In this document: positions 53,713 through 61,509 of the stretch, piece after piece | Position numbering within the stretch: position 1 is the first letter of the stretch | How the letters are laid out: every line of letters begins with the position of its first letter | Assembly: GCA_041690175.1 (NCBI GenBank) | Contig: JAWLHV010000006.1 | Location: forward strand, 63,914 to 127,913 | Origin: Dehalococcoidia bacterium | GTDB lineage: Bacteria; Chloroflexota; Dehalococcoidia; UBA2979 | Length of the DNA stretch: 64,000 bases | Direction of reading: 5' to 3' | Made by a program: the position numbers and the translations under genes | The notes under the pieces: model-generated | What the model was told of the DNA's origin: nothing | The model's input: only the letters and a program-made list of their open reading frames with translations | Database searches by the model: none

Positions 53713-54462
53713 ATGGCGAAGATCGTCTCGATCCACTCGTTTCGTGGGGGGACCGGTAAGTCCAACACCACGGCGAACCTGGCGGCCCACCTGGCGCTCC
53801 GAGGGCTGCGCGTGGGCGTGGTGGACACCGACATCCAGTCCCCCGGCCTCCACGTGCTGTTCGGCATCAAGGGCGAGGACCTTTCGCACTCCCTGAACGA
53901 CTTCCTATGGGGCCGCGCGGCCATCACGGACGTGGCGCGCGAGGTGCTGCCGGGACGGACTCCCGGCGCGATCTACCTCATCCCTTCCAGCATCCGCACG
54001 GACGAGATCGTCCAGGTGCTGCGGGAGGGCTACGACATGAAGTTGCTGGCCACGGCCTTCCGCCAGTTGAGCGAGGCGCTGAGCCTGGACTTCCTGCTGG
54101 TGGACACTCACCCCGGCCTCAACGAGGAGACGCTCTTCCTGCTGGCGATCTCCAGCGCCGTGGTCATCGTGCTCCGCCCGGACCAGCAGGACTACGAGGG
54201 CACCGGCGTGACCGTGGAGGTCGCGCGCTCCCTGGACGTGCCGCGGCTGATGCTGGTGGTCAACAAGGCGCCCCGGACGCTGCCGCTGGACGCGCTCGGC
54301 GAGCAGATCGCCAGCACCTTCGGCTGCGAGGTAGGGGCCGTGTTGCCCCACAGCGACGAGATGCTGGACTTCGGGAGCCGGGGCGTCTTCGTCCTGGAGC
54401 ACCCTGAGGATCCCGTGAGCGAAGCACTGCGCGGCGTAGCCGAGCGGCTGGCCACCTCCTAG
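53713..54462 (+). CDS. MinD/ParA family ATPase (variant RGGTGKS P-loop)
   Basis: HSFRGGTGKSN, VVDTDIQSPG, LVDTHPG, LVVNK. Confidence 0.88.
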   Translation: MAKIVSIHSFRGGTGKSNTTANLAAHLALRGLRVGVVDTDIQSPGLHVLFGIKGEDLSHSLNDFLWGRAAITDVAREVLPGRTPGAIYLIPSSIRTDEIVQVLREGYDMKLLATAFRQLSEALSLDFLLVDTHPGLNEETLFLLAISSAVVIVLRPDQQDYEGTGVTVEVARSLDVPRLMLVVNKAPRTLPLDALGEQIASTFGCEVGAVLPHSDEMLDFGSRGVFVLEHPEDPVSEALRGVAERLATS

Positions 54463-54498
54463 GCCGGGCCCACCCCTAGACCAAGCGAGGAGCGCAGC

Positions 54499-57147
54499 GT
54501 GAGGGAGCCCGAGGCTTCGTCCGGATCAGGCGCAGGCACCGGCGAGGACGTCCCGCCCGCGGGTGCTGTGGCCCGCCTCATCGTCCAGGTTGCCGGGGAG
54601 ACCTCGCCGAGGTCCGTGTGGCTCACCGGGACGGTGGCCCGCGTGGGCCGTGACCCGGAGAACGAGGTCACGGTGGACGTGCCGTACCTCTCCCGGCACG
54701 CGGTCACCATCAGGCGCTTCCCCGGCCACGTGTCACTGGAGCCGGTGGAGGGCGCGCTGACCACCGTGACCTACCGCGGGCGTGTACTCACGCGCCCGGT
54801 AGGGCTCGCGGACTCCGACTACTTCCGGCTGGAGGGCGACGGCCCCGGCGAGGCGGTGAACGTCTTCTATGCCAACGCCGCCCCGGGCGCGGAAGCGCCC
54901 GCGCGCCGGCGCCTGGCCCTGCGGGAGGGCGCCACGGTGCGCATCGGCAGCGCGGCCGGCAGCGACATCGGCGAGGGCAGTCCGCTGCTGGAGGGGGAGC
55001 ACGCGACGCTGAGCCGGGAGGGCGGCGCCACCTGGTTGACGCCCGCCGGGGACGCCACCGTCATGGCCAACGGCAGCATGGCCTTCGGCCGCACCCACCT
55101 GGCGCCCGGCGCCTCCGTCTCCGCGGGCGACGTACGCATCACCGTGGACGAGGACGGCGTGGAGTTCTGGGTGGCGCGCTCCTCGCTGGTGATGGGGGCC
55201 AGGCGCGGACGGGAGATGCCGGAGGAGGTGCTGCTCCGCCTGCCAGGCACCGGCGGCGCGGAGGTGGTGGCCCGTGACCTGACACGCCAGGCGGGCGATC
55301 TCACCATCCTGGACGGCGTCTCGCTGCGCTTCATGGAGCGCGAACTGGTGGCGCTGGTGGGCCTGAGCGGCGCCGGGAAGTCCACGCTGCTGAACGCGCT
55401 CACGGGCTTCCGGCCGGCAGACAGCGGCGAGGTGCTGATCAACGGCCTCAACCTGTACGAGAACCGCGACCACTTCCGCTCGCTGATCGGCTACGTGCCG
55501 CAGCGCGACATCGTCCACCAGAGCCTCACCGTCTTCGAGGCGCTGGACTACGCCGCGCGCCTGCGCCTGCCCCCCGGTACGTCCGAGGCAGACCGCCACG
55601 CGCGCATCCAGGAGGTGCTGGCGGACCTGGGGCTGGAGGAGCGGAGAGACACGCGCATCTCCAACCTCAGCGGCGGCCAGGTGAAGCGCGTCTCGATTGG
55701 CGTGGAGTTGATCTCCCAGCCTCAGTTGATGTTCCTGGACGAGCCCACCTCCGGCCTGGACCCGGCCACGGAGACGGACCTGATGCGGCTGCTCCGCCGC
55801 CTGGCTGACCAGGGCCGCACGATCGTGGTGATCACGCACGCCACCAAGAACGTGATGATCGCCAACAAGGTGATCTTCCTGGTGCGGGGCGGACGCGTGG
55901 CGTGGTTCGGGCCACCGGCGGAGGCGATCGACTACTTCGACCGCCAGCGTAGCGAGGCGGAGCGCGCCGACCGGCCGCTTGAGTTCGATGAGATCTACCG
56001 GCTGCTGGACCAGCCGGAGCGAGGTAGCGCGGCCGACTGGCAAGAGCGCTTCCGGCAGGACGCCGCCGCCCAGCGCTACCTCCCTCGCCCCGTCGAAGGT
56101 GGTACGCCCTCCGCTGCCAGGGCGGAGCGAGTGGAGCCACAGCCGCAGCCGGGCCCACTGCGGCAACTGCTGGTGCTCTCCGGCCGCAACCTGCGCCTGC
56201 TGGGGCGGGACCGCTTCGCGCTGCTGCTGGTGATCGCTGCCGCGCCGCTGCTGGCGTCCCTGGACTTCCTGATCACCAAGCGCGACATGTTCGATGCCGT
56301 CTCCGGCGACCCCGCCCGCATCATCACCAACACCAACACGATGATCGTGAACGCGATGCTGGTGGGCGCGCTGGCGCAGATGCGGGAGATCATCAAGGAC
56401 CGCGACATCTACCGCCGCGAGCGGCTGGTGAGCCTGCGCCTGTTCCCGTACGTGCTCTCCAAGGTGTGGATCGCCGGCCTGCTGGCGCTGTACCAGGCGG
56501 TCTGGTGGGTAGCGATCCGCTACGCCGCCGTGGACATGCCCGGCGGCTGGGACGTGGCCACCGGGTTCTACGTCACCATGTTCCTGGCGACGTTCGCCGG
56601 CATGATGCTGGGCCTGTTCGCGTCCGCGGCGTCGCCCTCGGAAGACGCGGTGGCGCTGATCGTGGCGCTGCTGATCGTGCCGCAGGTGCTGTTCAGCGGC
56701 GCGCACCTGCCGGCGCACGAACTCAGTCCCGTGGTGCGCTCCCAGATGGACATCATGCCCTCGCGCTGGGCGTTCGAGGCGCTGACCACGCTGGGCGGAC
56801 ACGGCACGGACGTGGCCAACGACCGCTGCTGGCTGGACACCACGCCGGAGCAACGCGCCGCCATGACGCCGGAGGAGAAGCAGGCCTGTACATGCCTGGG
56901 CGAGAGCATCTTCGAGTCCTGCGGGTACCCGGGCGTGCAGTCGCAGCGGGCGCTGGTCGCCGCCGGCGGCGCGGGCGCTTCGTCGGCCGTCCTCCTGGCG
57001 GAGGGGCGCCTGGAGGTGGGCTACGAGGGCTACGGCCCCGTGTATGACGTGAACGTGCCGCTCCGCTGGGGCGCACTCGTGGTCATCATCACGGCGCTGG
57101 GCGGCATCATCTACGGCATCCAGCGGCTCCGGGACCGCGTGCGATGA
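54499..57147 (+). CDS. FHA-FHA-ABC ATPase-permease fusion transporter (Rv1747-like architecture)
   Basis: FHA VGRDPEN...[29 protein letters not shown]-2 type TM region with [14 protein letters not shown]. Confidence 0.88.
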
Positions 57148-60100: not shown

Positions 60101-60392
60101 CAACGGGCTCGAGGCGCTGGAGGCCGTGGAGCGCCAGCCGTACGAGATCGTGCTGATGGACGTGCAGATGCCGGAACTGGACGGCCTGGAGACCACCCGG
60201 CGGCTCCGCGCCCGCTATGGCGCCCAGGGCCCCTACATCATCGCCATGACCGCGAACGCGATGTCGGAGGACCGCCAGGCCTGCCTGGACGCCGGCATGG
60301 ACGACTACGTCCCGAAGCCCATTGACCGCGCGGACCTGGCGCGCGCGCTGGAGGAGGCCCGGCGGCGGGTGACGGGGGCGAGTGGCACATGA
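57144..60392 (+). CDS. Hybrid histidine kinase: V4R-like N-terminus, 2 TM, GAF, HisKA, HATPase, two REC
   Basis: [40 protein letters not shown]1 [11 protein letters not shown]2 VLMDVQMP; GAF SFIGTPL...LGILGVD. Confidence 0.92.
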
Positions 60393-60769
60393 GCGAGGCC
60401 GAGGCCCCCGTGCTGGACCGCACCGTCCTGCGGCGCGTCTTCGAGGAGACCGGCGGCGACCCGGAGTTCCTGGCTGACCTGCTGGCGGAGTACCTGGAGG
60501 ACGGCGCGCGCCTGCTGGAGGAGGTGCGCACCGCCTGGGCCGCGCACGAGCGCGAGCGACTGCAGCGCAATGCTCACACCCTGAAGTCCAGCAGCGCCTC
60601 CCTGGGCGCGCTCCACGTCGCCTCGCTCAGCGCAGGCATCGAGGCGGCGGCGAAGCAGGGCGAGCAGCCCGCGGAAGACACTATCCACGCGCTGGCGGCG
60701 GCGTGGGCGCAGGCCTCGTCCGTCCTGGGCGCGCTGGACGTGGAGAGCCTGCGGCAGGCCGGGACATGA
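60389..60769 (+). CDS. Hpt phosphotransfer protein
   Basis: [13 protein letters not shown] (H-x-LK-x-S-x-x-x-x-GA Hpt motif); overlaps both neighbours by 4 nt. Confidence 0.9.
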
Positions 60770-61509
60770 CGGAGCAGCCCCGCGCCGGGCGCACGGAGGG
60801 GCAGCCGGCGCACGTCCTAGCAGTGGACGACAGTTCCGTGAACCGCCGCCTGCTGGAACGCCTGCTGACCCAGGAGGGCTACCGCGTCACGCTGGCGGAG
60901 GACGGTCCACAGGCGCTGGAGCAGCTGCGCGACCCCTCGCAGCCGGTGGACGTGGTGCTGCTGGACATCATGATGCCGGAGATGGACGGCCGGGACGTGC
61001 TGCGCCACGTGAAGGCGGATCCGGGGCTGCGCCACATCCCCGTGATCGTGCTCTCGGCGGTGGAGGACACGGATACCGTCACCGAGTGCATCGAGGCCGG
61101 CGCGGCTGACTACCTCCACAAGCCGTTCAGCCGCTCGATCCTGCGCGCGCGCCTGGTCGCCAGCCTCGCGGAGAAGCGCCTGCGGGACACCGAGCTGGAG
61201 TACCTGGAGCAGGTGGGCCGCCTCACGGAAGCGGCCAGCGCGCTGGAGGCCGGGCGCTTCGAGCCAGACTCGCTCGCCGGCGTGGCGGCTCGGCAGGACT
61301 CGCTCGGCCAACTGGGCCGGGTGTTCGCGCGCATGGCCACCGAGGTGGTGGAGCGCGAGGAGCGCCTGCGGCGCCAGGTGCAGGAACTGCGCGTGGCCGT
61401 GGACAGTCAGCAGACACGCAAGCAGGCGCAGGAGATCACACAGACCGCGTACTTCCAGAGCCTGCGCGGGCGGGTCGCGGAACTCCGCGATCTGCTGGAG
61501 CCGGACTAG
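60766..61509 (+). CDS. Response regulator: REC, HAMP-like domain and coiled-coil tail, no recognisable output domain
   Basis: VLAVDD, LLDIMMPEMDG, YLHKPF; RQDSLGQLGRVFARM resembles HAMP helix 2. Confidence 0.85.
   Translation: MTEQPRAGRTEGQPAHVLAVDDSSVNRRLLERLLTQEGYRVTLAEDGPQALEQLRDPSQPVDVVLLDIMMPEMDGRDVLRHVKADPGLRHIPVIVLSAVEDTDTVTECIEAGAADYLHKPFSRSILRARLVASLAEKRLRDTELEYLEQVGRLTEAASALEAGRFEPDSLAGVAARQDSLGQLGRVFARMATEVVEREERLRRQVQELRVAVDSQQTRKQAQEITQTAYFQSLRGRVAELRDLLEPD

Follow-up and report, generated by a model that had tools for sequence, protein, structure and literature searches.

A helical C-terminal tail and a variant MinD-like ATPase as a candidate non-transcriptional signaling output in a Dehalococcoidia operon

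The window analyzed here is a 64,000-nucleotide (64-kb) stretch of contig JAWLHV010000006.1 from a Dehalococcoidia bacterium (GenBank assembly GCA_041690175.1), and a five-gene operon occupies its positions 53713–61509. The operon encodes a MinD-like ATPase, an exporter with FHA and ABC domains, a hybrid histidine kinase, an Hpt phosphotransfer protein, and a terminal response regulator that ends in a helical segment referred to here as the tail. We estimate a probability of about 0.5 that the operon belongs to a widespread, unannotated three-part signaling-output system composed of a tail-ended signaling protein, an RGGTGKS-type ATPase, and a membrane effector that is usually a transporter. 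A prediction made earlier from the letters of the window (the original prediction) held that the relay output is spatial rather than transcriptional and acts through the ATPase on the FHA-ABC exporter. Taken as a whole, it is partly supported. It was right about the tail, the ATPase, and a non-transcriptional output, and it is plausible on the transporter, but it overstated the FHA-ABC exporter as a defining part.

The terminal regulator ends in a widespread tail

The REC domain of the terminal regulator covers residues 17–130 and contains D21, D22, D67, and K119. Pfam searches identified no DNA-binding or enzymatic domain in this protein, and HAMP (PF00672) matched below threshold at 22.1–22.6 bits compared to a cut-off of 25. 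The earlier description of a REC-HAMP-coiled-coil protein with no DNA-binding or enzymatic output therefore stands for the REC domain, the helical tail, and the missing output domain, but the HAMP assignment is sub-threshold only. An AlphaFold2 model of the regulator built from 54 homologues has a mean pLDDT of 93. In the model, the last REC helix is prolonged (residues 123–161) and is followed by a connector helix (167–174), a 47-residue helix (179–225), and a final helix (228–244). A fold search with this model was dominated by matches to the REC domain and returned nothing on the tail. The family-specific part of the tail is located at about residues 205–244 (61378–61497) and reads LRVAVDSQQTRKQAQEITQTAYFQSLRGRVAELRDL, with the C-terminal motif LRIEID..Q..V.EIT.TDYFQ.LR..A..LR. 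D213, Y229, F230, L233, and R241 are among its conserved positions. Forty tails from loci found through the ATPase align without gaps, and their consensus is ..YL.QV..LT.AAAAVE...F.P..L..VA.R.DALGQLARVFQRMAREV.AREQRLKQQVQELRIE.D..RQ..QVAEIT.TDYFQ.LR..A.DLR.

The tail was searched against 1.84 billion representative proteins, giving 467 matching clusters at E ≤ 1e-10 and 1299 at E ≤ 1e-3. It lies nearly always at the extreme C-terminus of proteins of 101–962 residues. The inputs that precede it in the best 150 matches are diverse: REC, DHp-REC (HisKA without HATPase_c), GAF, cyclic nucleotide monophosphate (cNMP)-binding, PAS, CHASE3/4HB-transmembrane (TM)-HAMP, a full hybrid kinase, or nothing. 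The tail also occurs fused directly to TM-HAMP and to the V4R-like-TM-GAF sensor, which is part of the kinase in the window. HAMP was matched in 60 of 145 tail proteins, but some of these 60 have a further, canonical HAMP. None of the ~150 tail proteins examined has a DNA-binding or enzymatic output domain, a comparative genomic result that supports a non-transcriptional output. About 35 of the best 150 (P0243, P0244, P0246, P0247, and others) are HisKA(DHp)-REC-tail proteins with no HATPase_c; they look like a phosphotransferase fused to a receiver in place of a separate Hpt.

The tail and the ATPase occur together across phyla

The association of the two proteins was measured in a base sample of 80 genome loci for which the ATPase was the only seed. 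The C-terminal tail motif was present in 57 of the 80. Flanks of 6 kb or more on each side were available for 38 loci, and 28 of these had the motif within 6.5 kb of the ATPase. In 21 of the 80, the motif was no more than 100 nt from the ATPase gene, mostly in the order Hpt, REC-tail, ATPase. Chance does not explain this adjacency because the tail family makes up less than 1e-6 of all proteins. Reverse seeding with tail or REC-tail homologues gave an ATPase within 4 kb in seven loci (L088, L089, L090, L094, L095, L096, and L099); one tail-seeded locus had no ATPase, and there the contig end was reached. A narrower tail alignment used in a metagenome scan gave 6 loci. L094 is a plasmid of the cyanobacterium Kovacikia, where a 191-residue coiled-coil-tail protein precedes the ATPase. 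The pair recurs in Chloroflexota, cyanobacteria, and actinobacteria.

Three natural REC-tail-MinD-like fusions were also found (P0305/P0391, P0362, and P0365), on contigs of 31–116 kb and with at least two junction types. The fusions keep the P-loop [F/C]SFRGG[T/V]GKS, and one is deposited as MBS2038542.1. Proteins that match the HAMP half of the tail only, namely REC-HAMP-PP2C proteins of Mesorhizobium and Azospirillum and a REC-HAMP-HisKA protein (L091), have no MinD neighbor, which points to the C-terminal ~45–55 residues of the tail as the specific determinant. The variable inputs, the constant C-terminal place, the reciprocal adjacency, and the Rosetta-stone fusions together argue that the tail is an output module partnered with the ATPase. 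The original prediction had singled out the regulator tail as an element tied to the MinD-like ATPase and had proposed a neighborhood analysis seeded with each of them. The tail and the ATPase co-occur in both directions and across phyla, and the comparative genomics supports the proposal.

The ATPase is a variant of the MinD/ParA type

The ATPase scores above the Pfam cut-offs (~25–27 bits) for ParA, AAA_31, and CbiA, at 64.9, 63.5, and 46.3 bits, respectively, and its nearest solved structures are the archaeal and Aquifex MinD proteins (E ~1e-15). The P-loop is HSFRGGTGKSN, with arginine at the position of the signature lysine of the deviant Walker A motif; switch I is VDTDIQSPG and Walker B is LLVDTHPG. 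In an alignment of 18 homologues, R11, K16, S17, D38, D40, and D131 are invariant, the C-terminus is variable, and a conserved C-terminal amphipathic membrane-targeting helix is absent. On these motifs, the protein is assigned to the ParA/MinD superfamily (deviant Walker A, SIMIBI), and the earlier description of it as a variant MinD holds. The family retains every catalytic residue, which argues that the ATPase is an active switch rather than a dead scaffold. Its homologues number in the thousands at 55–71% identity, and the named ones are Chloroflexota proteins annotated 'MinD/ParA family protein'.

Three known identities were rejected. Septum-site MinD is ruled out by the RGGTGKS motif, by the NCBIfam scores (45.8 bits for minD_bact, TIGR01968, compared to a cut-off of 212.9, and 32.2 bits for PRK10818 compared to 508), by the lack of a targeting helix, and by the absence of minC and minE both among the five genes of the operon and in the neighborhoods of its relatives. 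The KGGVGR-motif variant AAA ATPase model (NF047398) scores 77.6 bits, below its cut-off of 90, and the P-loop retains GKS. TadZ/CpaE is excluded by the separate genes for REC and ATPase, by a low CpaE_hom_Actino score (25 bits, cut-off 154), and by the absence of tad genes from the neighborhoods. The ATPase belongs to a distinct clade, is apparently active, and is not the MinD of a Min system.

A membrane transporter is the usual third partner

Neighbor classes were defined by clustering all open reading frames (ORFs) that lie up to 6 kb from the ATPase. A transporter-like gene was found in this range in 50 of the 80 loci and in 26 of the 37 with full flanks. The commonest further neighbor (36 of 80) is a protein of ~740 residues with a ~130-residue N-terminal domain and an APC-superfamily (Aa_trans/Trp_Tyr_perm) membrane domain. 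The other ATPase neighbors are an MFS/TLC-type carrier (11 loci), an HD-CE protein (10), a cNMP-patatin protein (9), and an ABC exporter (5). A membrane transporter thus recurs as part of the system, but the FHA-ABC form on which the original prediction was built does not define it and the partner is mostly of the APC type. The APC-type protein (L056, 13203–15428) and the cNMP-patatin protein (L002, 13369–15651) share the unannotated ~130-residue N-terminal domain with a pairwise E of 1e-7. This common domain hints at a docking module for the ATPase.

The gene order of the window is recognizable in other genomes. L095 and L096 have its order of ATPase, transporter, Hpt, and REC-tail, but an APC permease takes the place of the ABC exporter, and in L095 the kinase gene is upstream of the ATPase. 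Related Chloroflexota metagenome-assembled genomes keep the ATPase, the (FHA-)ABC exporter, a cNMP-binding-NTE-patatin protein, and the V4R-like-GAF hybrid kinase. In L002 and L003/L082 these genes are followed by Hpt and REC-tail; the stretches retrieved for L085 and L087 stop within the kinase gene. The patatin gene encodes ~750 residues with cNMP-binding, NTE P-loop, and patatin domains, and it sits between the ABC and kinase genes (L002 13369–15651, L082 13411–15711, L085 11427–13679, and L087 11444–13699). In a sister arrangement (L005, L014, L016, and L083), the ATPase is accompanied by a patatin gene, a V4R-like-TM-GAF-tail protein with no kinase, and a convergent cNMP-FHA-ABC gene. Comparison of this arrangement with the window suggests two ways of connecting one sensor to the tail, direct fusion and a phosphorelay. 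A further variant has two tandem ATPase paralogues. It is found in the culturable Herpetosiphon aurantiacus DSM 785 (L023; CP000875.1, ~1.4645–1.4694 Mb), together with a 450-residue MFS/TLC-type carrier and a 356-residue TM-HAMP-tail protein, and also in L032, L035, L041, and L046.

The variety of these partners bears on what the ATPase acts on. The best surviving alternative, which we consider unlikely, accepts the tail–ATPase pair and assigns it another target. The ATPase would position or cluster signaling proteins, as ParC/ParP and PpfA/TlpT do with chemoreceptor arrays, or cargo encoded elsewhere, and the transporter would be merely co-transcribed. The transporter class does vary (APC, MFS/TLC, ABC) and is missing in ~30% of the full-flank loci, the tail proteins are often membrane sensors themselves, and the minimal Kovacikia locus consists of the coiled-coil-tail protein and the ATPase only. 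However, a transporter-like or patatin gene lies directly downstream of the ATPase in most loci, and the N-terminal domain common to the APC-type and patatin-type neighbors suggests docking.

ArsA, a related deviant-Walker-A ATPase, turns the carrier ArsB into an ATP-driven pump. By this precedent, the ATPase could be a peripheral subunit, catalytic or regulatory, that docks on a carrier and drives or gates transport, with the tail as a signal-dependent regulator of its nucleotide state and with no spatial role. The commonest neighbors are indeed secondary-carrier folds (APC and MFS/TLC). We nevertheless regard this explanation as more doubtful than a non-transporter target; the partner in the window and its clade is an ABC transporter with its own nucleotide-binding domain, and the patatin and HD-CE neighbors are not carriers.

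The same patatin and HD-CE proteins could instead be read as effectors of a conflict or defense module, in which a cNMP-sensing patatin or HD effector is paired with an NTPase regulator; the cluster would then have no part in housekeeping signaling. The patatin protein weakly matches PADLOC models of CBASS/Pycsar-type effectors, and MinD/ParA-like domains do occur in conflict systems (PMC7159879). The domains described there are predicted inactive effector domains of other systems, whereas the present ATPase family retains all its catalytic residues. The five proteins of the window match no defense family specifically (PADLOC returned generic P-loop and phospholipase matches), the inputs are ordinary environmental sensors (PAS, GAF, dCache, CHASE3, and REC relays), and the loci contain no nucleotide cyclase. 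A defense role is very unlikely on this evidence.

The kinase, Hpt, and regulator form a predicted phosphorelay

The hybrid kinase begins with a cytoplasmic domain of ~270 residues, whose V4R-like part covers about residues 29–263 and includes Cys223, Cys249, and Cys257. It is followed by a two-helix TM hairpin (274–313), GAF (381–526), HisKA (572–637, with H582), HATPase_c (684–796), and two complete receivers, REC1 (~819–935, D870) and REC2 (956–1069, D1006). The Hpt protein scores 50 bits with the Pfam Hpt model and carries His63 in the sequence HTLKSS. The catalytic and phospho-acceptor residues are all present, namely H582, D870, and D1006 of the kinase, H63 of Hpt, and D67 and K119 of the regulator. 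These assignments predict a complete, canonical His-Asp-His-Asp multi-step phosphorelay. The GAF hybrid kinase with two RECs, the Hpt, and the terminal REC of the original prediction were found with all their domains and phospho-sites.

The V4R domain claimed for the kinase fared less well. The N-terminal domain of the window's kinase has no Pfam match, and V4R (PF02830) does not match it even at E ≤ 10. A profile of the domain gave no meaningful match to PDB sequences. Homologues of the domain in the fetched loci are 37–49% identical, and cysteines in the pattern C-x25-C-x7-C are invariant in 13 of them. In 11 of these 13, V4R does match, but below threshold (14–20 bits compared to 31), at profile positions 21–60 of 62 and over the cysteine pattern. 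The V4R-like label is suggestive, not established. Locus L090 carries two stand-alone copies of the domain (8137–8985 and 9148–9843; ~230–280 residues, three Cys kept) directly 3' of the ATPase gene; thus, the V4R-like sensor domain can exist as a separate protein of the cluster.

The exporter combines an FHA domain with an ABCG-type half-transporter

The first FHA domain of the exporter (residues 48–111) scores 23.8–28.4 bits compared to a cut-off of 20.7 and retains the phosphothreonine-binding GR and SRH motifs. Residues 143–217 are a degenerate FHA-like segment with a weak Yop-YscD_cpl match (22 bits compared to 33) and with the phosphothreonine-binding Arg lost. The nucleotide-binding domain (NBD; ABC_tran) covers residues 271–485 and the ABC-2 membrane domain covers 556–763. 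Residues 263–782 align with human ABCG1 (E ~1e-38), and TIGR00955 scores 220 bits, short of that subfamily model's own cut-off. The protein is classified by these matches as an ABCG-type (type V) half-transporter. The FHA-FHA-ABC architecture first proposed is clear for the first FHA, the NBD, and the membrane domain but not for the second FHA. The suggested cross-talk with Ser/Thr signaling finds no support in the window on two counts, this degenerate second FHA and the absence of any Hanks-type Ser/Thr kinase motif (HRDxKxxN-type) from the six frames.

A model for tail-dependent control of a membrane effector

The tail–ATPase link and the recurrent transporter partner are supported by comparative genomics, and they suggest the following model. 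The membrane-anchored hybrid kinase would use its V4R-like and GAF domains to sense a ligand in the cytoplasm or the membrane. Phosphate would pass from the kinase His to its own REC Asp, to His63 of Hpt, and to Asp67 of the terminal regulator. Phosphorylation of REC would alter the conformation of the tail dimer, which in relatives would be set by a directly fused sensor. The tail may then bind the MinD-like ATPase and set its ATP-dependent dimer or hydrolysis state, as MinE, ParB, and McdB do. The ATPase would in turn control the co-encoded FHA-ABCG exporter post-translationally, by recruitment or clustering or by gating. We infer the direct tail–ATPase contact, the direction of control, and the effect on the transporter from analogy. 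By comparison with MinE–MinD, ParB–ParA, McdB–McdA, TadZ, and ArsA–ArsB, the tail could either stimulate or sequester the ATPase, and the ATPase could either position or gate its target. The V4R-like/GAF sensor, the patatin of relatives, and the ABCG-type exporter lead us to speculate that the substrate in the window's clade is hydrophobic or a lipid.

Several observations weigh against the three-part reading. The FHA-ABC exporter is the partner of a minority clade, present in 5 of the 80 seeded loci and in L083, L085, and L087, which were fetched separately. The exporter has its own ATPase domains and does not need a MinD-type energizer. Neither a membrane-targeting helix nor a DNA-binding surface, either of which could account for positioning, is recognizable in the ATPase. 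About one quarter of the full-flank ATPase loci, including several cyanobacterial ones, have no tail nearby. AlphaFold2 predicted the domains of the REC-REC-tail-MinD fusion P0365 confidently but gave a pTM of 0.45 and a low-confidence tail–ATPase junction. Finally, the window is without the cNMP-patatin gene of its closest syntenic relatives, its only difference from them; no homologue of this gene is found in the 64 kb, and the ATGA junction at 57144 is present instead.

A broader claim is that the tail is an unrecognized, widespread output domain of two- and one-component signaling whose sole partner is the Arg-variant MinD/ParA ATPase, the pair being a signal-driven switch that controls membrane transporters and lipases post-translationally. 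We hold this claim more tentatively than the assignment of the operon to a three-part system, at somewhat under even odds. The targets of most response regulators are transcription or cyclic-nucleotide enzymes, and ParA/MinD ATPases are known as self-organizing positioning machines with constitutive partners. If the claim is correct, the pair would be a third major output logic of bacterial sensors besides transcription and second-messenger enzymes, and would open a new post-translational route from many sensors (REC relays, cNMP, GAF, PAS, and CHASE3) to a MinD-type ATPase beside transporters. Thousands of entries in Chloroflexota, cyanobacteria, and actinobacteria that are annotated 'MinD/ParA family protein' or 'response regulator' would gain a function as well. 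The question reduces to two small soluble proteins, the 249-residue ATPase and a tail of ~45–110 residues.

Comparison with known systems

MinD–MinE, ParA–ParB, and McdA–McdB are deviant-Walker-A ATPases switched by a short helix or peptide of the partner. The present pair resembles them in having a small stand-alone MinD/ParA-fold ATPase with complete catalytic residues beside a partner without an enzymatic domain, and by analogy the conserved helical segment of the partner is the likely contact. It differs from them in the invariant Arg that replaces the signature Lys, in the lack of a membrane-targeting helix, and in the absence of MinC, MinE, or ParB. The partner segment is also of another kind, being the C-terminal output module of two- and one-component sensors, which would place the switch under direct signal control. 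This dedicated signaling output domain is the new feature relative to the ParA/MinD-plus-partner systems.

TadZ/CpaE, an atypical receiver fused to a MinD-like ATPase, localizes the Tad pilus machinery. The coupling of a receiver to a MinD-type ATPase is common to both systems, and the fusions P0362 and P0365 are ordered REC-tail-MinD. In contrast, TadZ has a non-phosphorylatable pseudo-receiver and no tail, and the REC domain described here has all its phospho-acceptors and ends a His-Asp-His-Asp relay. The relay itself is like the TorS/ArcB/BarA-type and LuxQ–LuxU–LuxO relays, with a hybrid kinase that contains REC, a separate Hpt, a terminal REC, and conserved phospho-sites. Unlike those systems, the terminal regulator ends in the tail and the kinase has two RECs and a cytoplasmic V4R-like sensor. 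CheY, FrzS/AglZ, and REC-HAMP-PP2C regulators share the non-transcriptional output, and the HAMP-like half of the tail is common with REC-HAMP-PP2C regulators, whereas the C-terminal motif of ~45 residues is family specific and tied to the MinD-like ATPase. The exporter is comparable to the FHA-FHA-ABC exporter Rv1747 of Mycobacterium tuberculosis, which is under the control of the Ser/Thr kinase PknF (PMC3138270). In both, a single chain carries the N-terminal FHA domain(s), the NBD, and the ABC-2 membrane domain. Here, however, there is no Ser/Thr kinase motif in the window, the second FHA-like segment is degenerate, the neighbors are a MinD-like ATPase and a phosphorelay, and in relatives a cNMP-binding domain is swapped in or added.

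No model for the tail or for the tail–ATPase pair exists in Pfam, NCBIfam, or PADLOC, and no description of the system was found in the searchable full-text literature. The original prediction had called it a candidate undescribed system, and these searches agree. The annotations in the source records are generic ('CheY-like', 'cell cycle response regulator', and 'MinD-like ATPase'). The pair looks like an undescribed non-transcriptional output of bacterial signaling.

Organization of the operon and its surroundings

The features of the operon are listed in Table 1. The codon-position G+C content (GC) of the five ORFs is 0.90–0.94 at the third position (GC3) and 0.43–0.50 at the second (GC2) in a sequence of ~72% GC; this signature is of the coding type and identifies all five as genuine genes. 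The predicted five co-directional genes and three overlaps were found at exactly the coordinates given earlier, with ATGA start/stop overlaps at 57144–47, 60389–92, and 60766–69 joining the last four genes. The gap between the MinD-like and ABC genes is 36 nt. The MinD-like gene has an AGGAG ribosome-binding site at ~53699–53703, and a GAGGAG site precedes the GTG at 54499. A divergent OmpR-type regulator gene lies upstream, and a convergent alpha/beta-hydrolase gene downstream overlaps the last stop codon and sets the end of the operon. This flanking by divergent and convergent genes makes the five genes a self-contained unit. The single promoter candidate of the original prediction can be read by eye, but a consensus scan gave no sigma-70-type promoter for the operon. 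No terminator for the operon was found in the scan.

The least credible alternative, that an orphan ParA-like ATPase, an Rv1747-like exporter, and an ordinary phosphorelay are merely neighbors, can appeal to these weak promoter and terminator calls and to a link drawn from genomics rather than experiment, but it is disfavored by the co-occurrence statistics and stands against the translationally coupled overlaps, the synteny in independent metagenome-assembled genomes, the reciprocal tail–ATPase association, and the natural fusions.

Table 1. Coordinates of the operon features in the window
Feature	Position	Strand	Remarks
Promoter candidate CTGACA-18 nt-TATAAA	53597..53626	+	Read by eye, weak; ~85 nt 5' of the MinD-like start
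MinD-like ATPase ORF	53713..54462	+	249 aa
FHA-(FHA-like)-ABCG-type half-transporter ORF	54499..57147	+	882 aa; GTG start
Hybrid histidine kinase ORF	57144..60392	+	1082 aa
Hpt phosphotransfer protein ORF	60389..60769	+	126 aa
Terminal response regulator ORF	60766..61509	+	247 aa; ATG at 60766 taken as start
Tail of the terminal regulator, residues 136–247	61171..61506	+	HAMP-like two-helix unit, coiled coil, C-terminal helix

The region upstream of the operon contains further signaling genes. A PAS hybrid kinase gene (47426–49987, plus strand) overlaps a 131-residue ORF with no Pfam match (49984–50379, plus strand), and these are followed on the minus strand by genes for a 4HB-HAMP methyl-accepting protein (50461–52614) and for the OmpR-type regulator, which has an N-terminal extension of ~65 residues (52664–53560). 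None of the signaling genes at 47426–53560 is kept beside the ATPase in relatives.

Two other features of the window lie farther from the operon. The minus strand at 26330–37983 carries an alpha-glucan metabolism cluster with a GH57/4-alpha-glucanotransferase, a GlgE maltosyltransferase, and a CBM48/alpha-amylase branching-type enzyme. A single 898-residue ORF at 42106–44802 (plus strand) encodes a SEDS glycosyltransferase (FtsW/RodA) fused to a class B penicillin-binding protein transpeptidase domain.

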